64,000 nucleotides of DNA from a virus. The stretch lies in IMG/VR virus record IMGVR_UViG_3300013126_000012, positions 32,001 to 96,000 of that record; one strand, given 5' to 3'. A program made the position numbers and the translations under genes. Within the stretch, counting starts at the first letter, position 1. The number at the start of each line of letters is the position of its first letter. The notes beneath the pieces were generated by a model. That model made no database searches. It saw only the letters and a program-made list of their open reading frames with translations, and was not told the DNA's origin. Shown here piece after piece: positions 4,378-30,456 of this stretch.

Positions 4378-4409
4378 TTTATCCTTTATAACTTTTGTAT
4401 AAATATGGT

Positions 4410-4814: not shown

Positions 4815-5029
4815 CGTCGTTCTCGTACAAATTTAACACCTTTTGGATAATGCCCGTATACTAAACGAAGCATTTGCTCCAACGTTTTTCTATTTTCTTT
4901 ATGATCGGGGCCATCTATGTTTGTACACAACGAATACTCCATGACACATGTTTTAGTACCTGGCCATGTTGGATGATTTTGCATCTGAAATTCGTAAACG
5001 TATACATGTTTATGTGTCCACTTAATCAT
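4811..5029 (-). CDS. Hypothetical protein
   Basis: ORF with its own promoter-like motif and ATGA coupling to the next gene. Confidence 0.6.
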   Translation of the reverse strand: MIKWTHKHVYVYEFQMQNHPTWPGTKTCVMEYSLCTNIDGPDHKENRKTLEQMLRLVYGHYPKGVKFVRERR

Positions 5030-5047
5030 ACTTTATTATAATGAATT

Positions 5048-6001
5048 TTATTCACGAATCCTATTTTCTTTAGGACAACGTTCATAATCTGTTTTGAACG
5101 GACAATACTTACAATTTACAGCACCTTTGCCGGCAACAGCAACATAGTTTCTATCAGCATTCTTATTGCCTTCTGCATCAAAGCATGCATCAACAAAAGA
5201 TTCAATCTGCCGTTGAACTTTCTTTTGAGTTACTGAACCAGCTGCGGGTTTATGATTTTGAATTCGTTTTTGTGGAAACATTGATTCTTCAACAATCTTA
5301 CGCTTAACGATAAAAAATTCAACTTCAATCTTGTCACGCGATACACCAAATTGCTCTGCAAAGTAATTTTTGTATGCAATCAATTGTGCTGACTTCATTG
5401 CATCTGATTTAGCTGGTTGCTTCCAACCATTGCGAGATGTTTTAATATCAAATAATTTGAAAGTATTAGTAGGAACGTGTCGCATAACAACATCAATAAA
5501 ACCATACCAGTATACCGATGAATTCTTGGATGATGCTGGATGACATAATTCAATTTCAATGCCAACTAATTCCCAATCTTTACTTGAAAAGTATTGTCCT
5601 CGACGTTTGCTAAACCATTGTAAAATAGCCGCTCCATCTTCTAAATATTCTGCTAATTGTAATGGATTTGAAAAATGCTCTCCACCAAACTCTTGTACAC
5701 ATCGGGCATATTCTTCTCGAAGTTTGTTTTGCAATATTCCACGCAAATCTAATGCTTCTGCCTTCTTAACAGATTCTGTATACATTACGGTTAAGAAATA
5801 CTGAAATGTCTCGTGGAATGCCGTTCCAAACACTGTTTCAATTGATGCTTGGAACGGCGCTAGACCATCGATATATGATAATTTCCAAGAAAGCGGACAA
5901 CGTTCATACATCGACCATTGCGAATAAGAAATCTTTCTTGGTACAGATGTTGCATCTCGTACTGCTAATCTATATACCGGATTAATGTATGTACCTTTCA
6001 T
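5048..6001 (-). CDS. PD-(D/E)xK exonuclease (Cas4/RecB-like)
   Basis: ISYSQ...CP, FGTAFHE, GFIDVV, LFDIKTS, QLIAY, C-terminal CKYCPF...C cluster. Confidence 0.85.
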   Translation of the reverse strand: MKGTYINPVYRLAVRDATSVPRKISYSQWSMYERCPLSWKLSYIDGLAPFQASIETVFGTAFHETFQYFLTVMYTESVKKAEALDLRGILQNKLREEYARCVQEFGGEHFSNPLQLAEYLEDGAAILQWFSKRRGQYFSSKDWELVGIEIELCHPASSKNSSVYWYGFIDVVMRHVPTNTFKLFDIKTSRNGWKQPAKSDAMKSAQLIAYKNYFAEQFGVSRDKIEVEFFIVKRKIVEESMFPQKRIQNHKPAAGSVTQKKVQRQIESFVDACFDAEGNKNADRNYVAVAGKGAVNCKYCPFKTDYERCPKENRIRE

Positions 6002-6006
6002 ACTAT

Positions 6007-6035
6007 ATTATATAAAAAAATACATATAAATCCAA
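6007..6035 (-). promoter_or_regulatory. Class I promoter TTGGAT-N17-TATAAT, leaderless
   Basis: ATG lies 5 nt after the -10 hexamer. Confidence 0.7.
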
Positions 6036-6053
6036 TATACGATATATATTAAT

Positions 6054-7388
6054 ATGATACGTCTAAAAAAATTACTAGAACAATTGGGCGGTAAAAATGC
6101 AGTGTTTAAACAATCACCTATTGATAAATCAATCGTAATAACTCCATTTGATGCTAAAAAGGTAGCTAAATTATTATATAATTCAAAGGGATATATTAAC
6201 GATGATGAATCGTTAGCTAAAGATTCAATTATTAAAAATATTAATAATATTGAACAATACAAACAAGTAAATAAAGAATTACAGTCACTAACATCTGGTA
6301 GAGGTATTGGTGCATATCTTCGATCGTTTTTAAATAACGTAGATAGATTTAAAATTGTACGATCGTTAGTTTATAAGCTTCCGAAAACTGATTGGAAATG
6401 GACTATTGCAAAGATTATGCCATTTAGTGATTTTAAATTGTTAGTTAGCAAAAATCCTTCATATTGGAACGTTATAGTTGGAAATTCAATGTCAAACCAG
6501 CCAGTGACTAACGCAGAATTACAATTAATTCAATTTTATGAACCTGAAAAAATTAAGGATTCTAATTACGGATTCTGGGATAGAGTTATTGACACATTTC
6601 TATCCGTATCCGGAACACCAATTAAAGATGCTAGAGATTTACTATCAGATTTTGATGCTATCATTAAAAGAAGAATTGATTACAATAAGAAACATAATTT
6701 ACCAATTGATACCTTAACACCAGAAGAAAAAACTTTTAGGGAGAAAATTTTAAAGGCCACCCCAAACTATGGGTATCCTAACATTTTCGGTTTGTCCAAA
6801 ATTATACAAGATATAAATCAAGGTAAAAATATCCAACCTCAAGAATTCGAAAGATACAAAAAGATTGGAACATATGATTATGGTAATATTGGTAAACAAA
6901 AATATAGTGACCAAAAACTAAAGACGCTGCTGGGTTCCAGAGAAGAACTTAAAAGAATGTGGTTGGGAATTGATGAACCTGATGGGGAAAGTAAAGGTTT
7001 TTGGGTTAAATCGGAATTCAAACCAAAAGACTCAACAAACCCAAACGCTGTTTATTATAAACCAAAAGATATTCCAAAATTAACGCCACAACAATTTGAT
7101 GAATTATACAATGCAATTATGGATACTAAAAAACCAGATGGTAAATTTCCTGGGGGAAATAGTTCTATATTATTTGATAACAAATTCAAATTTATTAACG
7201 CAAGTATTAAAGAGAAAATAAGGGGTGATTTAGGTCATTTTAAATTTGGTGCGGGAAAAGAAAATGGAAAAACATATATTTCTATATATGATGAATGGGA
7301 CTTAATGCCACCTTCCGCCAAAAAATTCGGTGTTAATGTTCAAAAATACGGTAAAACACCATTAATATATTATCGTATTTTTAAATAA
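6054..7388 (+). CDS. Hypothetical protein with MIRLKKLLE leader and annexin-like N-terminal segment; only long plus-strand gene
   Basis: 444-aa ORF; leader shared with other ORFs; AKLLYNSKGYINDDE resembles an annexin repeat. Confidence 0.7.
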   Translation: MIRLKKLLEQLGGKNAVFKQSPIDKSIVITPFDAKKVAKLLYNSKGYINDDESLAKDSIIKNINNIEQYKQVNKELQSLTSGRGIGAYLRSFLNNVDRFKIVRSLVYKLPKTDWKWTIAKIMPFSDFKLLVSKNPSYWNVIVGNSMSNQPVTNAELQLIQFYEPEKIKDSNYGFWDRVIDTFLSVSGTPIKDARDLLSDFDAIIKRRIDYNKKHNLPIDTLTPEEKTFREKILKATPNYGYPNIFGLSKIIQDINQGKNIQPQEFERYKKIGTYDYGNIGKQKYSDQKLKTLLGSREELKRMWLGIDEPDGESKGFWVKSEFKPKDSTNPNAVYYKPKDIPKLTPQQFDELYNAIMDTKKPDGKFPGGNSSILFDNKFKFINASIKEKIRGDLGHFKFGAGKENGKTYISIYDEWDLMPPSAKKFGVNVQKYGKTPLIYYRIFK

Positions 7389-7535
7389 ATGCAAATCTTG
7401 TATAAATGAACCTTTATGCCGGCATCTTACAATGCGTTTAACGATATCAAATTCATAGGTATTCAATCCCCATTCTTCTGCAAATTTATAAAGGCTATCT
7501 TTACCTTTGTAATGTGTCTGTGTATTTACGCTCAC
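7362..7535 (-). CDS. Small DUF3310-like protein, possibly C-terminally truncated (not in ORF track)
   Basis: GTG start overlaps upstream TGA; MSVNTQTHYKGKDSLYKFAEEWGLNTYEFDIVKRIVRCRHKGSFIQDLHLFKNTIIY; HY...K..R...K...QDL pattern. Confidence 0.55.
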   Translation of the reverse strand: MSVNTQTHYKGKDSLYKFAEEWGLNTYEFDIVKRIVRCRHKGSFIQDLHLFKNTIIY

Positions 7536-7981
7536 TTGATTCCTTTTAACATACGTTTTTTCTCAGCATCGCTATATCCATACATTGTTATGATGCGTTC
7601 TAACGTAACCTTATCCATTAAATCTGCATAATCTACAGCTTCGGATTTGCTAATCTGATAATGTTCTGCAAGTTGTGTGATTAAATCTTTATCAAATTTA
7701 TCTTCAGTTTTGCCTTTAATGTATTTTGCAAAGCTTTTATTGGTAGGCAGAAGTTCATAGTACAATCGATATGTTTCTTGTGGTCTAAGTAATCCAATTG
7801 TATATGTTTGCAATTCATTGACTAATTCCGTTAATTCCATTCGCATCGATAACCAACGATTAACGATAAATGGAGAAAATTTCTTTTGATCGGTTTCAGA
7901 CCATTTTTTCCATTCACGTTTTTTATCCGTTACGCCACCAATCAAATCAAAAATCGTTGCACCTTTTTTTTCTTCTGCCAT
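7532..7981 (-). CDS. Clamp loader small subunit (T4 gp62-like)
   Basis: FSPFIVNRWLSM, YYELLP...FAKYIK, LAEHYQISKSEA; near clamp loader large subunit. Confidence 0.75.
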   Translation of the reverse strand: MAEEKKGATIFDLIGGVTDKKREWKKWSETDQKKFSPFIVNRWLSMRMELTELVNELQTYTIGLLRPQETYRLYYELLPTNKSFAKYIKGKTEDKFDKDLITQLAEHYQISKSEAVDYADLMDKVTLERIITMYGYSDAEKKRMLKGIK

Positions 7982-7984
7982 TCG

Positions 7985-8200
7985 TTATAATTTATATTTT
8001 TTACGATATTGTTGTTCTAAATATTCACCCATCCCTGCTTCTAAAATAACAGCAGTATCTGGTATTCCTATGATTCGTTTTGCATTTAAGATATCATCCA
8101 TTGATTTGTTTCGAAACGTTTTGATTTTAGTTTTTGCGTTGCTACGATTTGATGTTTTAAATACAATTGTAACTAAATCTTTATGATATGGTGCAGACAT
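7985..8200 (-). CDS. Hypothetical protein
   Basis: Tightly packed ORF in operon. Confidence 0.6.
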   Translation of the reverse strand: MSAPYHKDLVTIVFKTSNRSNAKTKIKTFRNKSMDDILNAKRIIGIPDTAVILEAGMGEYLEQQYRKKYKL

Positions 8201-8418
8201 TACTTTTTAACTTTTATGGGTTGAAATTCTTCTGGAATAGAACCACAGTCATCGCATCTAAATACTGGAATTGGTACCATGGTATCTTTATCGGCACCCG
8301 TTAAAAATTTAGATACTTTGTTGATAGCCATTACTTGTCGAAAATACATTCCGTTGCATTCGGCGCACGTAATTGGTTGCATATCGTTTGGACCAATATT
8401 AACATTTAATTTACTCAT
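8200..8418 (-). CDS. Small zinc-ribbon protein
   Basis: CAEC...CDDC pairs. Confidence 0.7.
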   Translation of the reverse strand: MSKLNVNIGPNDMQPITCAECNGMYFRQVMAINKVSKFLTGADKDTMVPIPVFRCDDCGSIPEEFQPIKVKK

Positions 8419-9341
8419 AATTCTCCTAATAAATTTACAAACATTGCCATTATGTTGATTTCTTTATCTACTACACTTGCATCTTTAAACTGCGATTCTG
8501 CTATAATCAAAATGCACGGAGCAATATGTCCATGTGCAAAATCATCTAAATTGTCATAAAGAAAAGTATACAATGGCGTAAAATCTTTTACTTTGCTATC
8601 AGCAATAACCTGACGTATTTTATTGAATGCAGCTTTTTTGTCTTTAGCATTTTTCAAAACTTCCAATATTTCCGTCATGTAATTTGCTTGAATTGCACTT
8701 GCTTTATCTAATTGCAATTTACCGTTAACAACAGATGCTTGTGCTGCATTGATTGCTCGGCGAATATCTGGATATGATGCATTGATGATTGCTGCTACAT
8801 CTTTAATATCATATGTAACACCCTTTTCATCTAATACCACAACCAATCGCTTTGCTACATCTGATTTGCTTGGAGGCGTAATAGCAAATGTTTGACAACG
8901 AGATTGAATTGGATCAATAATTTTTTCAACATAGTTACATGTTAAGATGAAACGCGTTGTTTTGCTATAAGTCTCCATTAAATTGCGAAGAGCAGCTTGA
9001 GCATTTGCGGTCATAAAATCGAATTCGTCGAGAATAATAACTTTCCAACGTTTAAAGCCGACCGACGATGCAAATCTAGATATTTTATCTCTAACGACAT
9101 CTACGGAATTTTCATCGGATGCATTAATATACATGGTTTGGCTATCAACTGCATTTGCTAAAATTTTAGCTAATGTAGTTTTACCCGTACCTGCCGATCC
9201 GTAAAATAATAAATGGGGCAATTCACCATTTTGTATCCAAATATTTGCTTTTCCTATTAACGCTTCGTTCCCGATATAACCATCTAATGTATTTGGTCTG
9301 AACGCCTCTGTCCACAAATCATGTTCTTTTTCTTGTTGCAT
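8415..9341 (-). CDS. Clamp loader AAA+ subunit (RFC/T4 gp44-like)
   Basis: W.E.FRP, GSAGTGKTT Walker A, INASDE, IILDEFD, SRC motif. Confidence 0.93.
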   Translation of the reverse strand: MQQEKEHDLWTEAFRPNTLDGYIGNEALIGKANIWIQNGELPHLLFYGSAGTGKTTLAKILANAVDSQTMYINASDENSVDVVRDKISRFASSVGFKRWKVIILDEFDFMTANAQAALRNLMETYSKTTRFILTCNYVEKIIDPIQSRCQTFAITPPSKSDVAKRLVVVLDEKGVTYDIKDVAAIINASYPDIRRAINAAQASVVNGKLQLDKASAIQANYMTEILEVLKNAKDKKAAFNKIRQVIADSKVKDFTPLYTFLYDNLDDFAHGHIAPCILIIAESQFKDASVVDKEINIMAMFVNLLGEL

Positions 9342-10146
9342 AACATTTATTCAATTGTAATTTATTTTGACCTTCGAAGATTGTTTCATTTATATAATCT
9401 CGTATGATATCTTCACTTATAATAAGGAATTCTATATTATTCTCCAAGCAATATTGCTTAGCAGCTGATGTTTTATAATGATTATCTTTTATGTTAGATA
9501 ACGGTTTAACTTCAATTAAAATTCGATTAATTGGATCATAAAAATCTACAATATATGTTTTAGATTCATTATTGTTATCAATATATGGAATACGGATTGT
9601 TTCATATTGCCAATGTTGATTAGAAAACCATAAACATGCTTCCCAACTACTCCGAAATTTTTTAATTTCATTATCTATTTCTATAACAGCATCCCAATGC
9701 GTGAAACTATTTGTAATTTTTGGAGTAAATTCGTTATTTAAAATTTTTTGTTTTAAAATTTTTGAATTCTTAATGCCTACTCGTTTTTTAGTCTCAATTC
9801 CAACAGCTGTTTGGTAATATGTTTTAAGTTTTTCAGAATTTTGTCGTCCTACTGATTTTGCTGTATCTTTACCATAATCTGTTTGAAAAAATTTCAACTT
9901 AGATTTGGAAATTTTCTTTCCAATATCAGTCGTACGTTTACCTCTTTGCCAAACTCTATTTTCAGTGCAAGTTAAACAATAACTACGGTACCGTTGAGTA
10001 TTGATATATTGTATATTACAATGTGAACATATATGATCATAACCTTGTGTTTCACATTCAATACATAATGTTTTATTCCACACTCCAAAAAACGAAGTAT
10101 TGCACCTATTACAAATTTTTTTAATTGGTTTATATCCACCGCTCAT
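9319..10146 (-). mobile_element. Free-standing homing-type endonuclease (Zn fingers plus TnsA-like PD-(D/E)xK domain)
   Basis: Multiple CxxC; FRSSWE...YE...IPY...YIVDF...LIEVKP; more AT-rich; overlaps clamp-loader start. Confidence 0.72.
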
Positions 10147-10199
10147 AACTAATCTTTATTATAAATATGAGTATTCAGAATAAAAAAATCTGTTTCTAG

Positions 10200-10625
10200 T
10201 TATTTACCTGTTGATCCAAATCCTCCTAGCCCACGTTTTGTATCTGATAGTGAATCGGTTATTTGCCATTCTATTCGTTCTACACGAGACATAACCAGTT
10301 GTGCAATTCGATCGCCCTTTGCAAATTCGGCAACTGTGCTACTATGATTTATTAAAATAACACCAATTTCTCCTCGATAATCTGAATCAATAGTTCCTGG
10401 CGTATTCAACACGGTTACTCCATGTTTTAAAGCTAAACCACTGCGAGGTCTTACTTGAATTTCAAATCCTGCAGGAATTTCTACAAATAGACCCGTTTTT
10501 GCTAATAGTCGTTCTCCTGGATTCAATACAACTGATTCTGTACATCTTACATCCATACCGGCACTTTGTGGCGTTTCATATGCCGGTAACATATTTTCTG
10601 ATTCGTTTATTACTTGTACTTGCAT
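10200..10625 (-). CDS. dut: Trimeric dUTPase
   Basis: AGMDV, RPRSGLA, GTIDSDYRGE, RIAQL, RGLGGFGSTG; start taken at MQVQV (10625). Confidence 0.95.
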   Translation of the reverse strand: MQVQVINESENMLPAYETPQSAGMDVRCTESVVLNPGERLLAKTGLFVEIPAGFEIQVRPRSGLALKHGVTVLNTPGTIDSDYRGEIGVILINHSSTVAEFAKGDRIAQLVMSRVERIEWQITDSLSDTKRGLGGFGSTGK

Positions 10626-10636
10626 ATTAATTTTAT

Positions 10637-11347
10637 TTAGTTCTGGAGCATCACTAACCAATAAGTTGATTCAAAATCTGCACCCGTAAATTCAATTCGA
10701 GCTAAACCATCTGGTGATACTTTTAATTCTCCGCTATCTCCACGATTTGCTACTAATACTTCTTTTAACTTATCTGCAGAAAAACAAACTGGATCCATTG
10801 TGGCCATTGTTGTTGGACCTACTTCAAATGAAATGTTATCTGCATTGACCGTTGTGTAATTAATAATAAATTTAACTTGTCCGTTAATAACTTGCACTGC
10901 AAAGTTTTTTGCATCTGGTAATGCATTTTTTGCTTTGATAAATTTGCTAACAAATTCTTCATTAACTGGAATAGTAATTTCATAATTAGGTTCTGCATTG
11001 ATTGAAGGTACTGCGGGAATAACTGTTGTGTCAGCTAACATAAAAGTTGCCTGCGTGCTACCTTCTGAAATTTTCATTGCATAATTTTTACCTGCTGCAT
11101 CTTTAACATCGATTGCAATATTCTCACCTAATGCACCTAGCATTTTAATCAAAGCGCCAGTATGATTAATTCCTAACATACCTGTCATGAATGGTGTTGT
11201 ATTCCATTTAATTTTACCTACGATGGTTTGATCTGTATCAATCAATTCGCATCCGATTGAATCTGTTTGTTCTTTTAAAATAACCGCTTCGCAATTGCCT
11301 GCTAAATAATAACGATTAATGAACGATTGTAACTTGCTTTTTTCCAT
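10637..11347 (-). CDS. DNA sliding clamp (T4 gp45/PCNA-like)
   Basis: 236 aa, two-domain beta-rich pattern ending STYWLV; near clamp loader genes. Confidence 0.65.
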   Translation of the reverse strand: MEKSKLQSFINRYYLAGNCEAVILKEQTDSIGCELIDTDQTIVGKIKWNTTPFMTGMLGINHTGALIKMLGALGENIAIDVKDAAGKNYAMKISEGSTQATFMLADTTVIPAVPSINAEPNYEITIPVNEEFVSKFIKAKNALPDAKNFAVQVINGQVKFIINYTTVNADNISFEVGPTTMATMDPVCFSADKLKEVLVANRGDSGELKVSPDGLARIEFTGADFESTYWLVMLQN

Positions 11348-11360
11348 TATTTATTCCAAT

Positions 11361-12620
11361 TTAAAATGTAAAGAATTTATTAAAATTTTCTGCATCAGTG
11401 GTTGATATACTGCTACCACCGAATTTTTTATATGTTTTGATGTATTTTTCATATACTTGCGGAGCCGAGTCTGGATCGGCAAACATTTCGTGCAAAGATA
11501 ATATTACATCATATAAGTCTCTAGGTATTACTGTTTCTAACAATTCAACGTGACTATCAACCATTTGATTGATTTCATTTGCAGCTTGTACATACAAATG
11601 CGTATTGTGAACTACCATTCGGGGCATTGCTTCTTGCGAATAGCGATCCAACCCGTCTGCTGTCTTACCGCCTAAATATTCATAAGTAAAATCTGCACAA
11701 GCCGGGCATCCCATAGAACACGGTACATGTTGAGTTAAGTCAATTGCAACCTCTCCGGTTTTGCCTTGCTTGATATGTGACTTTCTTCGATATTCGGCAT
11801 TCTTTGGAAAATACAATTCAGAGAATGATTGTGACTTGTAATTTGTTGAATGAAGATATGTTCCAAATACTGGATATTGTCCTGGAGATGAAGAATCTGT
11901 TGTGATATAAATTCTATTACCAGTTAATTCATTCATTAATTTTTGCAATGTAGCCAAAATAAAGAAATCTGAAATTTTACTAATACCAAGTAAGTGAACA
12001 TATTCTAATCGTTTATTTTCAAATTCTCGCTCTTTGAGCATCAAAGAAACTGCAAACATGAAATCAACTAATTTCTGCGGACCTCCAATTGCCCAACCTT
12101 GAAAATCAAAATGCTTAAATTTATGATACCACCAAGTATACTCATCTGCATTTGAACCTTGCAACATGTTTAAGAATTTTGTCTTGCCGCTTTGATTTTT
12201 TTCAAACCAAGCAAAATTATCAAAACTAATGTCAGCACAAAGTGCAAATTGATTTTTGTATTTTGTCTTAGGTGGGATATCTAAATTAGCTGCAACATCG
12301 CTGTTTGCTTCTAACCAATGAAAAATCTTTTCTCGCAATTCATTGCTATATGGTAATGCACCCGTTGCAATCTGATACCCGCCCGAGTCACCAAATACTA
12401 GCACATCTTTTTCTAATCCCATTTGATCGCGGAAATCCATTTTCTTGTAATGATGTCCTGCTGTAACCAGAAAGTATGGATGTCTCCAATCTGCAGGATA
12501 TCTAGAATCAAAGAATTTTACCGGATCGCCGCTTGTAAATTTCATATCTTTCTTAAATGCAGATACCATGCTGCCTGCAGATAAAGATGGAAAGTATATG
12601 AATCTTTTATTTTCGCTCAT
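11361..12620 (-). CDS. dpdA: DpdA/TGT-fold guanine transglycosylase
   Basis: FGDSGGYQ, LDIPP, WAIGG, VHLLG, DSSS, Zn site PCSMGCPAC...HN; same region as folE/queD/queE. Confidence 0.8.
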   Translation of the reverse strand: MSENKRFIYFPSLSAGSMVSAFKKDMKFTSGDPVKFFDSRYPADWRHPYFLVTAGHHYKKMDFRDQMGLEKDVLVFGDSGGYQIATGALPYSNELREKIFHWLEANSDVAANLDIPPKTKYKNQFALCADISFDNFAWFEKNQSGKTKFLNMLQGSNADEYTWWYHKFKHFDFQGWAIGGPQKLVDFMFAVSLMLKEREFENKRLEYVHLLGISKISDFFILATLQKLMNELTGNRIYITTDSSSPGQYPVFGTYLHSTNYKSQSFSELYFPKNAEYRRKSHIKQGKTGEVAIDLTQHVPCSMGCPACADFTYEYLGGKTADGLDRYSQEAMPRMVVHNTHLYVQAANEINQMVDSHVELLETVIPRDLYDVILSLHEMFADPDSAPQVYEKYIKTYKKFGGSSISTTDAENFNKFFTF

Positions 12621-13635
12621 CGTAGTCCTTTAAAGTATTAATTAATTTAGTTGCTGAAAAAAAGTTATTATGTAATTTTATTGCCAATTGTGCAATAGGT
12701 TCCGTTAAATCTTGTTGTTCGTATTGCAAAATTGCTTTTACTGCAGAATCAACGCTGTCTGCTTGTTTAAACATATAATCATACATTTCTACATATGACA
12801 ATCTATTTGGAACTATAGGGCATGCACCGGCACAAGCTGATTCATACATTGAAATGCCCAATGTTTCTTGATCTGCAAATGAAACTGCAAATCGTGCACG
12901 TTGAAGCAATTCATGATATTGTTGTTTATTTAAATTCATTTCCATTGCAACGCAAAATTGATAATGTTGCAATTCTGGACGAGCTGCCAATTCTAAAAAT
13001 AAATCTAAACGTTTTTCTGGTGCAATGCGATGCGGGAATACAATGATATTTTCTTTTTGTGACCAAATGCGAGATGCAATCATATTGTGGGTATATTCCA
13101 TTGGCCAACCTGTTTTGTTAAAAGATCTGTCGTGTGAAATATAATATGTTTTACTCATTAATTTAAAATGTGCTGCAGTTGCAATCCAATTATGATCATA
13201 TGCCGCAATCATTGCTTGTTCAGCGTGTCTAATCCATGGTTTATCTCCTACGAGACGACCTAAAAAGTCATTTGGGTCATATGAACCCGCGTGCCAAAGT
13301 CCGTGCGTTACAACGGGAATATTTAGGAGTTCGCTCATGTATTTAACATTGATAATACCTGGATGCCAAGCATCTGTAAATATGATATGATCGCCTTCTT
13401 GTATGTGTCCGCGAGTAAACATATATGACAATGTATGTACTTGTTTTGCTTTATACATATTAGTGCCACCAAAGTTTAAAAATGCACCTGGTGTCGTTGC
13501 TTCCGGAATATTTGAATCTCCTTCTACTACAACTACTTCAAAACCAACGTCTTCTAACAATTTAGGTATATGTGTCTTCCATTCGCAAGTATAACGCGTA
13601 GGAACTGATTCTATGTCAACTAAAAATATTTTCAT
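12607..13635 (-). CDS. GT-B glycosyltransferase overlapping dpdA
   Basis: FPHRIAPEKR, QETLGISMYE (EX7E), PIVPNRLSYVEM. Confidence 0.82.
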   Translation of the reverse strand: MKIFLVDIESVPTRYTCEWKTHIPKLLEDVGFEVVVVEGDSNIPEATTPGAFLNFGGTNMYKAKQVHTLSYMFTRGHIQEGDHIIFTDAWHPGIINVKYMSELLNIPVVTHGLWHAGSYDPNDFLGRLVGDKPWIRHAEQAMIAAYDHNWIATAAHFKLMSKTYYISHDRSFNKTGWPMEYTHNMIASRIWSQKENIIVFPHRIAPEKRLDLFLELAARPELQHYQFCVAMEMNLNKQQYHELLQRARFAVSFADQETLGISMYESACAGACPIVPNRLSYVEMYDYMFKQADSVDSAVKAILQYEQQDLTEPIAQLAIKLHNNFFSATKLINTLKDYDERK

Positions 13636-13640
13636 AACTT

Positions 13641-13669
13641 ATTATATAAAATTATTATATCATATCCAA
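13641..13669 (-). promoter_or_regulatory. Class I promoter TTGGAT-N17-TATAAT for GT-dpdA
   Basis: Exact spacing; ATG 5 nt after the -10. Confidence 0.7.
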
Positions 13670-14239
13670 ATAATGTTGAATATGTTCTGGAATATAAATA
13701 ATTTTTTCTCGTTTTTTTGAATTTTCAATTCCTGGTATGATTTGTAAATTTTTTATATCTCCTATTAATTCAGCAGGAATTTTATTATCAAATCCTTTAG
13801 ATTTAGGATAAATATGATCAATCGCATATCCGCCAATTGATATATGTCCAATTTTATCAAAATTTTCTAATGTGTGTAATGGTTGTTTTTTTGTAATTCG
13901 TAAAACTTCTAATATATACAAATATCTGTCATCTTTTGTTTCGGCCCATTGTTCTGCTGTCATTCCAAATTGTGCCAAAAAATATTTATCCCGATACTGT
14001 AAATCAAACATTGGATTATTTTCTTTTAACCATTTACTATGCTCTGGGCGTTGTTTTCCTTTACTCCAAGCAGGTTTACCATACATTGGATTATTTTGTC
14101 CCGTAGATGAACAACTTTTACATACTCTAAATTTTTTTTCAGCTTCCCGGGACGTTTTTATATGATTTTTTCCATTATACTTTAATTCAGTATTACAAAG
14201 AGGACATGAACGTAAACTATATGTATCTAAATGTTTCAT
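13655..14239 (-). mobile_element. HNH homing endonuclease
   Basis: CPLC/CKSC, NPMYGKPAWSKG NUMOD-like, YAIDHIYP...NLQIIPGIENSKK; AT-rich; splits the modification module. Confidence 0.8.
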
Positions 14240-14265
14240 TTAATATAAATATAACATATGTTCAA

Positions 14266-14290
14266 AATCTTCCCTAATCTTCCCTAATCT
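14266..14290. repeat. 10-bp tandem direct repeat (AATCTTCCCT x2.5) at HNH insertion boundary
   Basis: aatcttccct aatcttccct aatct overlapping the stop of the 14284 gene. Confidence 0.75.
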
Positions 14291-14637
14291 CGCTCAACAA
14301 CACAACCATTTTCCCAATCTTCCCAAACTTCTACTTTGTAAAGAGCCGGAAAACGTTCTAATAACCATTCTCCGATTGCTTCGCACGACATTGAACCAAA
14401 CTCTAATACATTGGGAGTTTCTTTTGTAAATCCAATTCGAAGTTCTTTTTGTATTTTTCTATTTAACAGGATAAATTCTTCATCGCGATCTGTATGTGTT
14501 ACTCGTGCATAACAACGAAATCCAAACATATGTCGATGTCGATCTGATAAGAATTCTACTTCCGGAAAAATGTCTTTTGCATCGGGCCAACAATGAAACC
14601 CTTCAATATTAAATGTTACTACTACGCTGTACTTCAT
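14284..14637 (-). CDS. QueD-like T-fold paralog, DpdL-like (putative CDG decarboxylase)
   Basis: EGFHCW, LSDRHRHMF (LxxxHRHxF), SCEAIG, VEVWED; lacks the catalytic Cys of the QueD CxxxHG motif. Confidence 0.7.
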   Translation of the reverse strand: MKYSVVVTFNIEGFHCWPDAKDIFPEVEFLSDRHRHMFGFRCYARVTHTDRDEEFILLNRKIQKELRIGFTKETPNVLEFGSMSCEAIGEWLLERFPALYKVEVWEDWENGCVVERD

Positions 14638-15025
14638 CTGCTATTAATTTTTTATATTTAGTTGTTGACCAACCATGGTCTCTGTTTAAGTATCGAATTG
14701 GAAGATCTAAATCATCGCCAGTAAATGATTTACCAATGTAATCATCGCCTAGGAATCTAACATTAAAGTTTCCTTTAACTAGAGCTTCATATAACTGAGC
14801 TTCCGTTTTATATGGAAATACAAAATCAACTTGTACAAGTGAATCAAGTATTTTTACTCGGTCGCTCCAATGTAATATTGGTTTAAGTTTTTCTGGTCGT
14901 TCAATGGATGGATCTTCGTGTAAACATACTATTAATTTATCGCAGTGCTTTTTGCATTCATCAAACATTGCAATATACCCGGGGTGTATTACGTCAAAAT
15001 TTCCTGCTATAACTCCTCTTATCAT
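14609..15025 (-). CDS. Cytidylyltransferase (TagD/RfaE-like)
   Basis: AGNFDVIHPGY (HxGH-like), KPI...R, GDDY, HGWSTT. Confidence 0.88.
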   Translation of the reverse strand: MIRGVIAGNFDVIHPGYIAMFDECKKHCDKLIVCLHEDPSIERPEKLKPILHWSDRVKILDSLVQVDFVFPYKTEAQLYEALVKGNFNVRFLGDDYIGKSFTGDDLDLPIRYLNRDHGWSTTKYKKLIADEVQRSSNI

Positions 15026-15444
15026 TGTCTATCAAATTTGTAATCATCTGGAGTAACATGTTGCATATTGTGCACGGTTGTACAATACAATGAATAATCT
15101 GCATATACAACTTTGATGCTATCTGTTTTCTTTAACAATGCAGCATCTTCACAATCTAACATCAATAAGATGTGTGCTCGAATTCTAATCATCGGCGGAA
15201 CATGTTTCAACATGCCCGGAGTAACTTCTATGGTAACAAATGTAGTATCCGTTATCATATCAAATATTGAACTCCACGCTTTACGATCAACTAATTGCTG
15301 CGTTGCAGGCGAACAAATATAAATGTGCGCGCAAGGAGTCAATTTTTCATGTGTTGCTTTCATATCCGCAATGAATAGCGTTTCGATATCGGTAAATCGT
15401 CCTTCAACTTCTTTACCATACCAATGTGTCTTATAACCAATCAT
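15022..15444 (-). CDS. Hypothetical protein, first gene of the modification module
   Basis: WYGKEVEGRFTDIETLFI; ATGA-coupled to the cytidylyltransferase. Confidence 0.65.
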   Translation of the reverse strand: MIGYKTHWYGKEVEGRFTDIETLFIADMKATHEKLTPCAHIYICSPATQQLVDRKAWSSIFDMITDTTFVTIEVTPGMLKHVPPMIRIRAHILLMLDCEDAALLKKTDSIKVVYADYSLYCTTVHNMQHVTPDDYKFDRQ

Positions 15445-15449
15445 ACTTT

Positions 15450-15478
15450 ATTATAATAAATTTATTCTTATTTTCCAA
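15450..15478 (-). promoter_or_regulatory. Class I promoter TTGGAA-N17-TATAAT for the modification module
   Basis: Exact spacing; ATG 5 nt after the -10. Confidence 0.7.
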
Positions 15479-17984
15479 ATGAAAAAAACTTTGCCACTGA
15501 ATTATTTTCTGGAAATGCTCCCCAATTCATTGCAGCATAAAAATCATCCAATTTATTTTTTAATTCTTTTTCAAATATTTTGTTTCGATCTATATATTGT
15601 GTAACAAATTCTTCAATTTCTTTTGGATCTTGATAGCCTCGCAATGCCATTGTATCAAATCCATATGGATTATCTGATAAGTATGCCCATTTTACTTTTT
15701 CTCCGTTTTGAATAGGTTGGATGTCTCGGATTTTATGCAATGTTAATAAATCATTGAAATTGATTGCTGACTTAACATGTGCCGGAGTTCCAGATACATA
15801 TCCAGTAAATGGTTTGCGACCTTTTGTGAATTTTGATATTTCTTTGACACCTGAATTCTTCATTACATTGAGTACGGGTGATTTCTGTATGTTGCGTTTA
15901 AATTCATGTATCATATCCGTTGTAGCAGTCTTATCTCGTTCTTTAAGAATATGCCACAATGTTTCTTTCATGATTTTTTTGAAATCTTCTGGAAATGATG
16001 ATCTAACAACATCTAATCCTTTGATATCTAATTTATCCGTAGGTTTGCCTTCCTTAAAAATTACCCATTGTGCATATCGTTTCTTTGCAATCCATAAACC
16101 AGATTTTGCAACATATTCTTGTTTGATTTGCCAACGATGCGATGTGGTATTATGAAATACTTCAGCATATCGATCATACATTTGATTTACCAATGCTTGT
16201 ACTTCTGATGCAATTGCATTGGTTTGTGCAATCATAAATTGTTCGTCTGATTCATCATATCCAGGAAACCGTTTTGCAATAAGTGGCAAGCTAGATACAA
16301 ATGTTGAATCTGTATCTGTATAAAAAGCAAATTCTGCTTTGCCATTAGTTGCATTAACAAAATGATCTTGTCCCGTCTCTTTTGCATAATGATTGTTAAT
16401 TACCTTTGCTGAAAATTTGATTACTGCTTGACCAGTTGCCGTAATAGCACCTGCATTATCTAAATCATGAAACCGAAACGTTTTAAGTCCCAATACTCCA
16501 TAAAATGAATTAAGAAGTACTTTTTGTGTTAACTGCATTGCATCGTAGAATTTATATTCTTCTGACCCTACTTCATATTCATCTCGTTTGTCTTTAAATT
16601 CAACCCGTTCATTAAACCATTTTTCTAGAATGGTTGGTAAGAATCCTCTTCGGTCATTTGTGTAAACTGTGCCATTACTTGCAACTGTATAATTATTATC
16701 AGATAACCATGCTTTAACGTGTGGAACATAAGTACCATTTTGTAATGTTATTTGTTGTGGGTCTGATTTCAATAAGCATTCTTGGTCCCAATTTTGAATT
16801 ACGCCTAATTTAGTTTCAGGAGAAATATTCAAACTCATAATGATGCTTGGATAAAGTGACGTTAAATCTAAGTCATAAATCCATTTGTATAATCCTGGTA
16901 CGGGATCTTTTACATATGCTCCAGCAAGTGCATCTGCTTCCGTTTCTTCTTCAACAAATCTAAATTGTTTGTTAGGAGCAACTAATCCATTGCGTTTCAA
17001 ATCTACAATTGCAGCACCATCCAAATATTTGGATGCATAATATACATCCTCATATGGAACGTGCCCTTTATGGCATATGGTTCTTGCAAGTGCAATTAAT
17101 TGCAATTTGTCATCCATTTCATAAATAAGATCAACGTCGGTAACGTTATATTCTACAAATTTATGAATGTCTTCTGCAAACAATTGATCTAAATCTCCTT
17201 CATATTCAACCTTACCTCTGCCCAATTCCTTTTTAGCAACCGTGTCTAATCGATAATTTGGTAATTCAGTGTATGTAAACTTTTTATACAATGTTAAATA
17301 ATCTAAACTAGATACGCCAAATATTTTGTATCGACCTCTATTTTTATTCCATTCAACGATACCTGCAGGAGATAACTTTTTAATTGCCTGTGCACCTAAT
17401 ACTTTTTTAATGCGATTGATCAGATATGGAATATCGAAATTATCCGTATTCCAACCTGTAATTACTGTGGGTTGTATTTCTGCAAATGCATTGATAAAAC
17501 GCATCAACATGTTTGCTTCTGAATCAAATATTTCTACCTGATATTTATTAGTAGCAAATGAATCGTGTTTCACTCTTCTTTCTTCATCTAACAGCAAAAC
17601 TTGCATGGTACGCCCAGCTTTATCATAATATGCAATGGACGTTATTCGCGAACGAGCTTCTTCAGGAGTCGAATACCCATCTTCGTCCCGCTCTACTTCG
17701 ATATCAAAGAAAAAGTCTCTATGTCCTTTGGAAACTAAATCGCTTTCGTAATAAAGGTCGATAAGCGTACGCATTTCTTCGTTTAAATCAGATTCATATG
17801 CAGTAGCATTGTCTTTCCAATTGCCATCAACCCGATCCAATCGCACGCCATCTAATGATTGATATTGTCCTGTATCTGATGGTAAATATGCATACGGTTT
17901 GAATGGGAACTTTTGATGTCCTAACTCATCATCCCATACGTGCATAATACCAGTTTTTTTATCGTAACCTATTGCTTGAAACAT
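15468..17984 (-). CDS. Family B DNA polymerase with 3'-5' exonuclease
   Basis: FFDIEV, GWNTDNFDIPY, YNVTDV, DLTSLYPS, KVLLNSFYG, YTDTDS, KKRYA. Confidence 0.96.
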   Translation of the reverse strand: MFQAIGYDKKTGIMHVWDDELGHQKFPFKPYAYLPSDTGQYQSLDGVRLDRVDGNWKDNATAYESDLNEEMRTLIDLYYESDLVSKGHRDFFFDIEVERDEDGYSTPEEARSRITSIAYYDKAGRTMQVLLLDEERRVKHDSFATNKYQVEIFDSEANMLMRFINAFAEIQPTVITGWNTDNFDIPYLINRIKKVLGAQAIKKLSPAGIVEWNKNRGRYKIFGVSSLDYLTLYKKFTYTELPNYRLDTVAKKELGRGKVEYEGDLDQLFAEDIHKFVEYNVTDVDLIYEMDDKLQLIALARTICHKGHVPYEDVYYASKYLDGAAIVDLKRNGLVAPNKQFRFVEEETEADALAGAYVKDPVPGLYKWIYDLDLTSLYPSIIMSLNISPETKLGVIQNWDQECLLKSDPQQITLQNGTYVPHVKAWLSDNNYTVASNGTVYTNDRRGFLPTILEKWFNERVEFKDKRDEYEVGSEEYKFYDAMQLTQKVLLNSFYGVLGLKTFRFHDLDNAGAITATGQAVIKFSAKVINNHYAKETGQDHFVNATNGKAEFAFYTDTDSTFVSSLPLIAKRFPGYDESDEQFMIAQTNAIASEVQALVNQMYDRYAEVFHNTTSHRWQIKQEYVAKSGLWIAKKRYAQWVIFKEGKPTDKLDIKGLDVVRSSFPEDFKKIMKETLWHILKERDKTATTDMIHEFKRNIQKSPVLNVMKNSGVKEISKFTKGRKPFTGYVSGTPAHVKSAINFNDLLTLHKIRDIQPIQNGEKVKWAYLSDNPYGFDTMALRGYQDPKEIEEFVTQYIDRNKIFEKELKNKLDDFYAAMNWGAFPENNSVAKFFSFGK

Positions 17985-18828: not shown

Positions 18829-18986
18829 TTTTCTTCCAATTGATCAATTAAAAATCGTAATCTGTTAATTTCTGTAATAACATCATCACCCAACTCTATT
18901 TTAGACATCATGGATAAATCTATTACTTGCGTTTCTAAAACTTTGATTAATTCTCGTTGCGCGTTTATTAAATCTTCTTTATTCAT
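18825..18986 (-). CDS. Small coiled-coil protein, 53 aa (not in ORF track)
   Basis: MNKEDLINAQRELIKVLETQVIDLSMMSKIELGDDVITEINRLRFLIDQLEEK; TAATG overlap with queE. Confidence 0.65.
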   Translation of the reverse strand: MNKEDLINAQRELIKVLETQVIDLSMMSKIELGDDVITEINRLRFLIDQLEEK

Positions 18987-19798
18987 TATACTCCTCGTTT
19001 AGTGTCAAATGCAATGATATGATCTCTGCCTGTCATATTATATCCTTTCTCAGCACACATATCAAATACCACAGGATACATTTTTATTAATTCTTCTCTG
19101 TTATCACCCGCGGGCATTATAAATGTTTTAGATTTTGGAATATTATGTAATACTCTAAATTCTTCAATTTCTTCTAGATTATACGCTGTGCCATCCCATA
19201 CTGGTTTATAATGATAATCTGCGTGAAATGCAATCATCTGTTTGATTGCTTCGTGATTGAGACGAAATTTATTGTGTTGCGCCACCATCTTTTCATCCGT
19301 AATCGTCCCTTGCGGCGTAGCAACACCCACACGGGGAACGCTATTATCAAACTTAGGACTAAGACTAATAAGCCCAATAGGATAATCGGTAGCAATAAAA
19401 TGCGAGCCTTCTGTTTCAATCGTGATAAGAATGTTTCTTTCATGTGCAAAATGAGTTAATTCATTTACCAAAGCCGGATGCATTGTCGGCGAACCACCAG
19501 TTAACATCATTTCTTTGATGTGTGGATTTTCATCGTATATCTTTATGATATCATTGAATGTAAATGTGCCTTTTTCTGGATGGATACTTGTATACCATGA
19601 ATCGCACCAACCGCCTTCACCAAACCAACATCTATGCGTACAGCCCGTAGTTCGTACTGCAATTGTTGGTCGTCCAAATCGGCTACCCTCTGACTGTACG
19701 CATCGATACAATTCTACTATTGGTAGTGTTTTGTTGTAATCTGTTATTCTTTTAGAAGGGGAGGTCGTCATCGTGGTACTCATTACTATTGGTAACAT
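18986..19798 (-). CDS. queE: 7-carboxy-7-deazaguanine synthase (radical SAM)
   Basis: VQSEG, RTTGCTHRC...WCDS, LTGGSP, IETEG, SLSPK; true start may be near 19771. Confidence 0.92.
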   Translation of the reverse strand: MLPIVMSTTMTTSPSKRITDYNKTLPIVELYRCVQSEGSRFGRPTIAVRTTGCTHRCWFGEGGWCDSWYTSIHPEKGTFTFNDIIKIYDENPHIKEMMLTGGSPTMHPALVNELTHFAHERNILITIETEGSHFIATDYPIGLISLSPKFDNSVPRVGVATPQGTITDEKMVAQHNKFRLNHEAIKQMIAFHADYHYKPVWDGTAYNLEEIEEFRVLHNIPKSKTFIMPAGDNREELIKMYPVVFDMCAEKGYNMTGRDHIIAFDTKRGV

Positions 19799-20150
19799 TG
19801 TTTTCTAATTTTTTTAATAAAGTTGCAAATTTGAATTCTAATTCTTCAAGTCGTTGATGTATTTCGATTAACGCAGATCGTCTTACAATTGGCGTCAAAT
19901 CCATCTCAGGTTTAGTTGCAAAGAATTCATCCAAAAATGATACAGGATACAGTTGCACCTGATTGTATTCTGGTTTTTGTGCTTCTTTTGGTAGCATTCT
20001 ATATTTGATATCAACGCCCCGTTTAATAGCTTCCGCTGTTACTTCTCGACCAATGTTTGATCCACCAGAGCCTTTACCTAAATATTCAAAAAGCGATATA
20101 TAAGTGTCATCATTATTCTTCATAACTTGCTGAGTTTCTTTCGTGTTCAT
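19752..20150 (-). CDS. Hypothetical protein
   Basis: ORF between queD and queE; acidic DDDLPF C-terminus. Confidence 0.6.
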   Translation of the reverse strand: MNTKETQQVMKNNDDTYISLFEYLGKGSGGSNIGREVTAEAIKRGVDIKYRMLPKEAQKPEYNQVQLYPVSFLDEFFATKPEMDLTPIVRRSALIEIHQRLEELEFKFATLLKKLENNVTNSNEYHDDDLPF

Positions 20151-20577
20151 ATACTTCTACTTTTATTGCTTGAACTCTGCCTTCGGTTTCTTCAAACAAA
20201 AATTTATTAATTACTGCGTACAAATATTCAGCAAACCGTTCACAACCTGTAGCAGGTAATACACGTAATTGAATTACGCCATCTTCATACATTTGTTTAA
20301 ATTTTTCTAAATATGGATCGTCTTGTGCTATGATTGTAGTGTGGTCTAAAAGATAATCAAAATATGCTTTTGGAGACATACCATTTATTTTAGCTTTTGC
20401 ACGTTTCATGCCGCCAAAATCAAATACCCAATTACGATGATCTAAATCTCCTTCAAACCATACTCGAAATGATACTGCATACCCATGTAAAAATTTACAA
20501 TGAGTTCCTTCTGCTCGCCATTGGCGAAAACATGTTGAATATCCATCAAATAGTTTTGTTGATGTAAATTGTGCCAT
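20113..20577 (-). CDS. queD: 6-carboxy-5,6,7,8-tetrahydropterin synthase
   Basis: HCKFLHGY, VFDFGG.K, LDH, GCERFAE, VEVYEH. Confidence 0.9.
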   Translation of the reverse strand: MAQFTSTKLFDGYSTCFRQWRAEGTHCKFLHGYAVSFRVWFEGDLDHRNWVFDFGGMKRAKAKINGMSPKAYFDYLLDHTTIIAQDDPYLEKFKQMYEDGVIQLRVLPATGCERFAEYLYAVINKFLFEETEGRVQAIKVEVYEHERNSASYEE

Positions 20578-21278
20578 TAATTATAACCTTTTACAAATTG
20601 ATAAAATTCTGATCTTGCATTTCCATCATCTAAAAATGCTCCAGATAACTTTGCAGTCTTCATTGAAGCTCCGCCATGTTTAACTCCACGACATTGAACA
20701 CAATTATGTGTTGCTTCAATCATAACTGCTACACCTTTATTGCGTTCAATAAGCTCATCTATTGCGTGATGAATTGCTACTGTTAATTGTTCTTGAATTG
20801 CACCTCTTCTACCAAAGTGTTCTACAACGCGATTCAATTTACTTAAACCAATAACATTGCTATTCTCACCTGGAATGTATGCAACATGAACTAAGCCCAT
20901 AATTGTTTGATGATGATGTGAGCACATTGAAGTTAATGGAATGCCTCCTTCAAATACAATGCCATCATATCCGTCACTAGGAAATGCTGTGATTCCCGAC
21001 ATTGGTTCATATCTGCCAGCCCATAAATCATTAACATATGCCTTTGCAACTCTACGTGGAGTATCTGCAGAATTTGGATCTGATTCCCATGTAACGCCTA
21101 GAGCAGTTAAAAATTGCCCATAATGATAAGCTGCTTTATCAATTATTGCTTGTTTTTCTTGTTGCGTTAATTTAGCATCCGGACCTTCTAACGATTGTTT
21201 TGTTGCTAATTGAATTGAAACGCCATTAGCAAAACCAGGATGCACTAATTCTAAATTTTTTCTTTGTTTGTCTGTCAT
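20577..21278 (-). CDS. folE: GTP cyclohydrolase I
   Basis: TPRRVAK, SMCSHH, GLSKLNR, QEQLT, HNCVQCRG. Confidence 0.96.
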   Translation of the reverse strand: MTDKQRKNLELVHPGFANGVSIQLATKQSLEGPDAKLTQQEKQAIIDKAAYHYGQFLTALGVTWESDPNSADTPRRVAKAYVNDLWAGRYEPMSGITAFPSDGYDGIVFEGGIPLTSMCSHHHQTIMGLVHVAYIPGENSNVIGLSKLNRVVEHFGRRGAIQEQLTVAIHHAIDELIERNKGVAVMIEATHNCVQCRGVKHGGASMKTAKLSGAFLDDGNARSEFYQFVKGYN

Positions 21279-23940: not shown

Positions 23941-23986
23941 TGTTGTAATCTCCTTAGATGTTTTATTAACTTAAATTTTTTAGATG

Positions 23987-24010
23987 AAAAAAGGAAGGAG
24001 TACTCCTTCC
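23987..24010 (-). terminator. Perfect 18-bp palindrome plus U6 in the nrdJ leader
   Basis: GGAAGGAGTACTCCTTCC followed by TTTTTT on the minus strand. Confidence 0.6.
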
Positions 24011-24035
24011 CAATTTCTTTCATATAAATATCATT

Positions 24036-25391: not shown

Positions 25392-25426
25392 ATAACCATT
25401 ATATAAAAAACGTTGATAAAATCAAA

Positions 25427-27632: not shown

Positions 27633-27647
27633 TTTATAACCTCACTG

Positions 27648-30450: not shown

Positions 30451-30456
30451 TCTTCA

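Follow-up and report, generated by a model that had tools for sequence, protein, structure and literature searches.

The Cellulophaga phage phiST encodes FolE, QueD, QueE, DpdL, and DpdA3, which together yield 2'-deoxy-7-deazaguanosine (dDG) in its DNA (Cui, Hutinet et al., NAR 2023, PMC10516641). DpdL proteins are defined as QueD paralogs carrying an LxxxHRHxF motif and are proposed to decarboxylate 7-carboxy-7-deazaguanine (CDG), an activity that for phiST DpdL is only proposed, heterologous tests having failed (PMC10516641). In the bacterial Dpd system (DpdA/DpdB/DpdC; PMC10164549), the DNA insertase has a TGT fold and the base is preQ0/ADG, made through QueC. Glycosylation of a 7-deazapurine base can be carried out by HuiG (PF13439 family; PMC7439116), encoded beside FolE/QueD/QueE homologs in the huimycin cluster of Kutzneria albida, which transfers GlcNAc onto the exocyclic N2. 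On phage DNA, the T4 alpha- and beta-glucosyltransferases and the glycosyltransferases of Pyle et al. (bioRxiv 10.1101/2023.12.21.572611) are phage encoded and transfer sugars from host NDP-sugars onto a pre-installed non-canonical base after replication. The DNA of Pseudomonas phage PA5oct contains an unidentified modified G and displays G-dependent resistance to restriction enzymes (PMC12191111).

The locus analyzed here lies in a 64,000-nucleotide stretch (the window) of the genome of an uncultured freshwater T4-like phage, which is complete with terminal repeats at 159,586 bp. The module genes are all on the minus strand, flanked by PolB (15468–17984, minus strand; PF00136, 2.6e-39) and a probable clamp (10637–11347, minus strand), and several overlap, as the first-pass annotation had described: by 4 nt between the first gene, encoding a 140-aa protein, and a cytidylyltransferase-like gene, by 29 nt between the latter and dpdL, and by 14 nt between the end of the glycosyltransferase gene and the start of the dpdA-like gene. 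Upstream, also on the minus strand, profile matches established FolE (GTP cyclohydrolase I; 20577–21278; PF01227, 5.7e-44), QueD (CPH4 synthase; 20113–20577; PF01242, 4e-15), and QueE (CDG synthase; 18986–19798; Radical_SAM and TIGR03365), which are 65%, 62%, and 63% identical, respectively, to the phiST enzymes. The lack of queC and queF noted in the window extended to the whole genome, in which neither QueC nor QueF was found. The DpdB and DpdC of the bacterial Dpd system are likewise absent here. Like phiST, the phage is thus QueC-less, and in both the modification genes lie beside a polymerase gene. phiST differs from the window in its short DpdA3 (259 aa), in the presence of a P-loop kinase-like gene and of MazG, and in lacking both a glycosyltransferase and a counterpart of the 140-aa protein.

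The QueD paralog recognized in the first pass (14284–14637, minus strand; 117 aa) contains LSDRHRHMF, which fits LxxxHRHxF and replaces the CxxxHGH of QueD. It is 42% identical to phiST CGPG_00067 (E 7e-15), and an alignment of the window, phiST, ACP17, and PA5oct DpdL proteins with QueD places H15, H34, E86, and E106 in common. The complete genome also offers the genomic setting that defines DpdL, encoding FolE, QueD, QueE, and a DpdA-like protein while lacking QueC. By sequence, the 117-aa protein is a DpdL; decarboxylation of CDG by DpdL remains a proposal.

The last gene of the module (11361–12620, minus strand) encodes a protein of 419 aa whose AF2 model (pLDDT 72.8) retrieved with Foldseek only TGT, QTRT1, and ArcTGT structures among the top 50 (E about 5e-9). 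VIA-align placed the model closest to ArcTGT (Z 20.1, rmsd 4.2, 299 aligned) and TGT (Z 18.7), followed by the bacterial DNA preQ0 insertase DpdA (7ui4; Z 18.1, rmsd 4.6, 305 aligned) and the accessory subunit QTRT2 (Z 17.8), as compared to Z ≤12.5 for generic TIM barrels. GDSGG[YF]Q, LDIP, HLLG, D242-x2-SP, and H338-N339 are invariant in the family alignment, and all 14 sequences compared, the most distant at 23% identity, keep GDSGGYQ (D78) and TD242SSSP unchanged; by motif likeness rather than superposition, D78 and D242 are presumably the TGT catalytic aspartates. The predicted protein has a TGT-type (beta/alpha)8 barrel with catalytic motifs, in agreement with the original call of a TGT-fold DpdA, and its fold, motifs, and context suggest that it may act on DNA. 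At the sequence level, the window protein has no PF01702 match at E≤0.01, while relatives at 72 to 75% identity have a precomputed match. Between its family and phiST CGPG_00065, hhalign reached only 45.5% (E 2e-4; 125 columns aligned), and BLAST gave no link between the two proteins in either direction.

The adjoining glycosyltransferase gene (12607–13635, minus strand) encodes a GT4-type protein (Glycos_transf_1) that scored 30 bits against PF00534 (cut-off 26.4) and 33.3 bits in the genome search, for which no PDB sequence match to its profile was found. Twelve sequences, down to 42% identity, all retain E257-x7-E265 and HR203IAPEK208; we take the EX7E and R-x4-K (phosphate-binding) patterns to be the GT4 donor and catalytic motifs. 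The assignment as a glycosyltransferase therefore stood, with a profile score above cut-off and intact GT4 motifs. The protein is acidic (pI 5.2–6.4), with no obvious DNA-binding character, and all of its look-alikes are viral.

The glycosyltransferase, DpdL, and a long DpdA-like gene occur together in 66 IMG/VR loci (48 close and 18 distant), the only gaps falling at contig ends, and in six cultured phage lineages (ACP17, PA5oct, Phosso, BCSR5, BUDD/X1, and BUCT-ZZ01). In Acidovorax phage ACP17 and PA5oct, the three genes are adjacent and the glycosyltransferase is 37 to 41% identical to that of the window; unlike the window, these phages have the order DpdA-GT-DpdL and no cytidylyltransferase, the DpdA of ACP17 falls into a second group of long sequences, and PA5oct-like loci contain an extra phosphoribosyltransferase. 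An Ochrobactrum island reminiscent of a chromosomal modification island (long DpdA-like protein, glycosyltransferase, YhhQ-like transporter, and GmrSD) pairs the glycosyltransferase with the long DpdA-like gene in the absence of DpdL. No such glycosyltransferase was found in the short-DpdA3 phages phiST (with proven dDG), MA9V-3, and D479. Co-conservation of the glycosyltransferase with dpdA, on which the first-pass annotation had staked its reading, thus held across IMG/VR, the cultured phages, and the Ochrobactrum island. The DpdA-like protein, DpdL, and the glycosyltransferase form a co-conserved unit, fed by FolE, QueD, and QueE without QueC.

The 140-aa protein, earlier left as an "unknown ORF" (15022–15444, minus strand), belongs to a large, unannotated family, here called X, with 940 cluster representatives at E≤1e-3 (hhalign 78.7%, E 1.7e-5; reciprocal top HMM matches and a colinear alignment). 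The three top matches of its AF2 model (pLDDT 78) among 48,161 PDB chains were all QueE (4njg, Z 6.1, rmsd 3.6, 121 aligned; 5tgs, Z 6.0; 6nhl, Z 5.5), although Z values below 8 can reflect a common arrangement. Foldseek with the same model returned nothing at E≤0.001, hhalign of X against the QueE of the window gave no match, and the CxxxCxxC radical-SAM iron-sulfur motif is absent from both the 140-aa protein and the family consensus. The model suggests that X is probably a half barrel of the QueE kind that lacks the cysteine motif of radical-SAM enzymes. X lies directly upstream of the trio in ACP17 and was undetected in PA5oct, Phosso, BUDD, and BUCT-ZZ01. Because the "unknown ORF" is this recurrent QueE-like family, the five-gene module first proposed reduces to a core of DpdA-like protein, glycosyltransferase, and DpdL, with X in many lineages and the cytidylyltransferase as an option.

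Two further elements of the region fall outside this core. The free-standing HNH-type homing endonuclease gene (13655–14239, minus strand; weak HNH_4 and GmrSD_C matches; phrog_5104) is bordered by short gaps between dpdL and the glycosyltransferase gene and is found there in just 7 of the 42 close loci; already listed in the first pass as inserted, it is a mobile, selfish insert. The single promoter proposed for the module does exist as a sigma-70-like consensus match (TTGGAA-17-TATAAT, 15478–15450, minus strand; 10 of 12 consensus positions). However, such matches are no more frequent in the region than chance predicts (50 found versus 61.9 expected in shuffles), and the −10 box stops 5 nt short of the ATG at 15444, leaving no room for a leader, so its function is doubtful.

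We consider it an even call that the locus is a QueC-less module for 7-deazaguanine modification of DNA, of the DpdL type but with a second architecture, distinguished from that of phiST by its long TGT-like enzyme, GT4-type transferase, and family X. FolE, QueD, and QueE would, by homology, convert GTP to CDG, which DpdL, probably aided by the QueE-like X, may convert to an insertable base (7-deazaguanine in phiST). The long DpdA-like enzyme would then exchange guanine for that base in phage DNA after replication. The glycosyltransferase would add a sugar from a host NDP-sugar onto the deazaguanine. Its target could be the free base shortly before insertion, in the manner of HuiG, which glycosylates N2 of its deazapurine, or the base once it is in DNA. 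The association of a glycosyltransferase with deazaguanine genes in many unrelated phages predicts a sugar-bearing purine in DNA, and a glycosylated 7-deazaguanine, the most economical reading and one retained from the first pass, is the most likely product, with chances that we put at about one half. 7-Deazaguanine offers no hydroxyl, so that any choice of acceptor atom (N2, C7, or, were the base CDG, its carboxyl) is conjectural; the presence of a glycosyltransferase without DpdL in the Ochrobactrum island indicates that the acceptor need not be a DpdL product. Glycosyltransferases of 5hmC act on a pyrimidine hydroxyl, whereas the pathway partnered here leads to a 7-deazapurine without one, and HuiG serves secondary metabolism, its free base arising via QueC and O-methylation with no transglycosylase or DNA involved. 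The fuller version, in which guanine is replaced by an N2- or C7-linked sugar-bearing 7-deazaguanine through a long DpdA, a virus-only GT4 enzyme, and X as a cluster-less QueE derivative handling a deazapurine intermediate, is put at slightly under an even chance.

An alternative, which we regard as rather unlikely, is that the DNA contains plain dDG (or dCDG), as in phiST. The glycosyltransferase would then modify some protein or small molecule, or support the long DpdA-like enzyme as a partner while leaving the base unmodified. Among DpdL systems, no product other than plain dDG is proven, a second phage, VP1, has full replacement by 7-deazaguanine, and this base has no obvious acceptor group; the acidic character of the glycosyltransferase and the precedent of accessory subunits in the TGT superfamily, such as QTRT2, are also consistent with this explanation. 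However, R203, K208, E257, and E265 are invariant down to 42% identity, and the glycosyltransferase accompanies long DpdA-like genes in many unrelated phage lineages and one bacterial island and is absent alongside short DpdA3, a pattern hard to square with an unrelated function.

The donor for a glycosylated deazaguanine was first thought to be made by the cytidylyltransferase (14609–15025, minus strand; PF01467, 2.5e-10; phrog_7878), which would supply a CDP- or ADP-activated compound of the glycerol, ribitol, or heptose type to the glycosyltransferase in this clade. Its overlap with both neighbors, the purifying selection on it, the invariance of HPGY and RxHGWSTTK across alleles, and the occurrence of heptose among the sugars that phage glycosyltransferases put on 5hmC all fit that role. 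However, the gene is missing from 7 of 42 informative close loci (in one case from the whole 109.6-kb record), from all 18 distant loci, and from all cultured phages with the module. Median identity among close loci is 63%, as compared to 81 to 92% for its neighbors, and it has been exchanged as an allele of 59 to 72% identity between flanks that are 96 to 99% identical (63% in L004). Homologs are common in cyanophages, Streptomyces phages, and Vibrio phages, none of which are among the glycosyltransferase matches. Membership of the cytidylyltransferase superfamily stood and the TagD label did not: the protein scored 54.2 bits with TIGR01518 (TagD equivalog; cut-off 165.4) and equally well, 55.5 bits, with the HldE adenylyltransferase domain (cut-off 181.5), levels at which specificity is not assignable. 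HxGH reads HPGY, the second His being Tyr, in all nine alleles; RDHGWSTT is present. The usual donors of GT4 enzymes are NDP-sugars, not CDP-polyols. Absence in relatives together with allele swapping argues that the cytidylyltransferase is not an obligatory donor-maker; it is an optional, exchangeable accessory gene, and the activated-donor role is very unlikely. Least probable of all is that the product never enters DNA, the TGT-like enzyme acting on tRNA or the module making a soluble huimycin-like glycosylated deazapurine during infection: structurally the model lies no nearer to DpdA than to tRNA enzymes and HuiG-type chemistry works on free bases, but the module is embedded in a block of replication genes, with PolB and the clamp on either side, the window contains no tRNA genes, the prototype DpdL system (phiST) modifies DNA completely, and PA5oct, with the same trio, has DNA with G-dependent restriction resistance.

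To our knowledge, the eight known 7-deazaguanine DNA bases all have small substituents and the known sugar-decorated DNA bases are all pyrimidines; no description of a sugar-bearing deazaguanine or other purine in DNA was found in the searchable literature. A glycosylated deazapurine would thus extend the natural DNA bases by a new chemical class; if present, it would be the first sugar-decorated purine to be known from natural DNA, and would be made by a previously unrecognized enzyme set. It could explain the failed reconstitution with ACP17 dpdA and dpdL and the modified G of PA5oct, a therapeutic candidate phage, and lends itself to direct testing, the module being present in at least six lineages of cultured phages. 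The glycosyltransferase family and family X are two uncharacterized families, abundant in aquatic viromes. A glycosylated 7-deazaguanine would shield the phage genome from nucleases and, if confirmed, would have consequences for restriction, CRISPR, and glycosylase-based defenses, for how such genomes are sequenced, and for enzyme tools.

The module lies in a complete virus genome of 159,586 bp with terminal repeats, of which the window is bases 32001–96000; GC content is ~33%, and the minus strand carries nearly all window genes. Read along the minus strand, PolB (15468–17984) is followed by a 140-aa ORF (15022–15444), a cytidylyltransferase-superfamily protein (CT; 14609–15025), a 117-aa QueD paralogue bearing LSDRHRHMF (DpdL, a proposed decarboxylase of 7-carboxy-7-deazaguanine [CDG]; 14284–14637), an HNH-like gene (13655–14239), a Glycos_transf_1 glycosyltransferase of GT4 type (GT; 12607–13635), and a 419-aa DpdA-like protein of the TGT superfamily containing GDSGGYQ (11361–12620), beyond which lie a probable clamp, a dUTPase, and a clamp loader. 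QueE, QueD, and FolE together occupy 18986–21278 on the same strand. This order is as described in the first-pass annotation, and the lack of queC and queF reported there for the window extends to the whole genome, in which no QueC, QueF, phosphoribosyltransferase, or NTP_transferase was found. A site resembling the single promoter proposed for the module is present, but matches of this kind show no enrichment, and the −10 box lies right against the start codon. Searched at the DNA level against phage genomes, the sequence gave a single match, of 141 bp, in phage Phosso.

Scanning IMG/VR with the GT as query yielded 66 loci, 48 close and 18 distant. The close loci (GT 69–97% identical) maintained the order PolB, X, CT, DpdL, (HNH), GT, DpdA, clamp, where X denotes the family of the 140-aa ORF. 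Among the distant loci (GT 42–53%), a long DpdA-like gene was near in 16 of 18 and DpdL in 17 of 18, with the missing genes falling at contig ends. The GT4 motifs R-x4-K and EX7E were kept down to 42% identity, over which range the GT N-terminal domain was also strikingly conserved, and GT look-alikes in the ESM Atlas were viral without exception. Cultured phages in which the GT has DpdL and a long DpdA-like gene as neighbours are ACP17, PA5oct with its relatives, BCSR5, BUDD/X1, and cyanophage BUCT-ZZ01; in Phosso it abuts DpdL, and a TGT-like gene lies ~170 kb away. DpdL phages with a short DpdA3, namely Cellulophaga phage phiST (the prototype, with proven 2'-deoxy-7-deazaguanosine [dDG]), Chryseobacterium MA9V-3, and Vibrio D479, have no such GT. 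Occurring with long DpdA-like genes and missing from short-DpdA3 phages, the GT thus accompanies the long DpdA type. MA9V-3 has the phiST-type architecture. Its DpdL makes up the C terminus of a 293-aa protein (extracted locus L077:5452–6333), after an ~180-aa N-terminal extension of no recognised kind, and the next genes encode an AAA_18/AAA_33 kinase-like protein and a 264-aa DpdA3. The survey bore out co-conservation of GT and dpdA, with the GT accompanied by long DpdA-like genes in IMG/VR loci, cultured phages, and a chromosomal island of Ochrobactrum. The module is genuine, with solid support for its core.

The 419-aa DpdA-like protein had no match in a Pfam search, and PDB sequence searches with single proteins and with DpdA and GT profiles gave no matches. 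The TGT hallmarks GDSGG[YF]Q, LDIP, HLLG, D-x2-SP, and H-N are kept in its alignment (14 relatives), and Foldseek matches to its AlphaFold model (pLDDT 72.8) were TGT enzymes only. Unbiased VIA-align of this model placed ArcTGT (Z 20.1), TGT (18.7), and the DNA preQ0 insertase DpdA (18.1) first, with generic barrels well below. The relation of the window's enzyme to the 259-aa DpdA3 of phiST is weak, and membership of DpdA3 is not demonstrable at the sequence level. The 117-aa protein is 42% identical to phiST DpdL and, by its sequence, fits the published DpdL definition (PMC10516641).

The 140-aa ORF had no match in Pfam, PHROG, NCBIfam, PADLOC, or phage tblastn. In ten GT-bearing loci, ACP17 among them, DpdA and DpdL are separated by a member of a ~170-aa family (family X); hhalign related the 140-aa protein to this family (78.7%, E 1.7e-5), each was the other's top HMM hit, and the colinear alignment contains invariant G10, E12, E14, T22, F24, H40, W57, K111, Y135, and D138. 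The window's protein is, on this profile evidence, a remote member of family X. In a set of 1.84 billion proteins, the joint profile recovered 940 cluster representatives (E ≤ 1e-3); family X had no match in the ESM Atlas, and searches for it in PA5oct, Phosso, BUDD, and BUCT-ZZ01 were negative. A structural model built on 94 sequences (pLDDT 78) had no significant Foldseek match, and in VIA-align against 48,161 chains its best three were QueE of three species (Z 6.1, 6.0, and 5.5). By eye, the N-terminal G-x-E-x-E-G-R-F resembles Q-S-E-G-S-R-F of QueE; the radical-SAM cysteines are absent. Because hhalign of family X with the window's QueE was negative, the link comes from VIA-align and this short local likeness. 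X may be a cluster-less QueE derivative that binds a deazapurine or pterin intermediate, which we treat as a lead, not proof.

The first-pass annotation had joined five genes in one unit and had the CT make a CDP-activated donor for the GT. In 7 of 42 informative close loci the CT is missing and X stands immediately next to DpdL, and an HNH gene occupies the window's site in only 7 of 42; because both vary among loci, a five-gene obligatory unit was rejected, and the HNH gene is a homing-type insert. No CT turned up at another position in the CT-less relatives, whose records, one of 109.6 kb among them, are incomplete, and the distant and cultured modules all lack it. Its median identity is 63%, compared with 81–92% for neighbouring genes; in one close locus (L004) a 63% identical CT sits between 99% and 96% identical flanks. 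CT homologues are frequent among cyanophages and among phages of Streptomyces and Vibrio, none of which were among the GT hits. The HxGH motif reads HPGY, and the sequence matches the superfamily only, with no specificity assignable. The CT is a real gene under selection, yet optional, and its proposed role is not supported.

Several neighbouring genes were also observed. A ~13-kb glycan-biosynthesis island on the same strand spans window 1–4377 and upstream sequence (whole-record coordinates G000:C1 ~23,500–36,400; extracted locus L086 1584–14377), encoding three GT2, one TOD1/MUCI70-like, and two GT1 transferases (one matching "GT4-conflict"), the nonulosonic acid synthase NeuB, a CMP-type cytidylyltransferase (CTP_transf_3), a 2-hydroxyacid dehydrogenase, and two epimerase/dehydratases. 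Four further records and the complete genome of a close relative lack NeuB; the island is therefore strain-specific and was set aside as donor supply or sugar extender for the module. Between it and the replication genes lie a YspA/SLOG-family protein (134 aa) and a PD-(D/E)XK nuclease (317 aa) (4410–6001, minus). A TnsA-like/phrog_15427 endonuclease gene (9319–10146, minus) separates dUTPase from clamp loader; as these are adjacent in the close relatives checked (e.g., 4 nt apart in L003), it looks like a second mobile insert of the replication block. Between queE and queD, a 132-aa ORF conserved in relatives (19752–20150, minus) ends in DDDLPF, much like the DDDIPF with which bacterial SSB ends in an acidic tip, by which likeness it is probably a replisome-interaction protein, not a pathway enzyme.

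FolE, QueD, and QueE are 62–65% identical to their phiST counterparts, and a 3-kb contig of Crocinitomicaceae MAG UBA8924 (L073; Flavobacteriales bin) carries a near-identical X-DpdL-GT-DpdA stretch (GT 79%, DpdA 94–98%) with the dpdA-like gene split into two ORFs. The contig most likely comes from a phage and hints at the host; together these likenesses point to a Bacteroidota host. In Ochrobactrum sp. MYb379 (L076, NZ_JBBGYW010000002.1; 641–13823), a chromosomal island adjoining an integrase encodes GmrSD, an 853-aa unknown, a long DpdA-like protein (454 aa; hhalign 100%), a Vut_1/YhhQ-like transporter, a GT of the same family as the window's (40% identical), a 411-aa unknown, and DUF6641. 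The island lacks DpdL, family X, and any PADLOC match, and may be a bacterial modification island fed by imported deazapurine.

In the proposed pathway, CDG would be made first and then processed by DpdL (and X), the long DpdA would insert the processed base, and the GT would glycosylate the deazaguanine either as free base or on DNA. The co-variation of GT with DpdA type, the acidic pI of the GT, and the precedent of HuiG, a huimycin glycosyltransferase acting on a 7-deazapurine base (PMC7439116), would favour the free-base route; known DNA sugar modifications are all post-replicative, a point for glycosylation on DNA (10.1101/2023.12.21.572611). In PA5oct-like loci and the cyanophage, a phosphoribosyltransferase gene recurs near GT or QueE genes (L062:9630–10097; PA5oct, L002:10330–10764; BUCT-ZZ01, L079:1441–1902), recalling the tubercidin biosynthesis step from CDG plus PRPP; such a route was considered for the present module and rejected, as no phosphoribosyltransferase was found in its genome. 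The literature search found no paper on glycosylated deazaguanine in DNA. ACP17 dpdA and dpdL, expressed in E. coli with no other gene of the module, gave no dDG (PMC10516641), and PA5oct DNA contains a modified G of no identified structure (PMC12191111). Both observations agree with a glycosylated base, which is a plausible product of the module at, in our estimate, about even chances.
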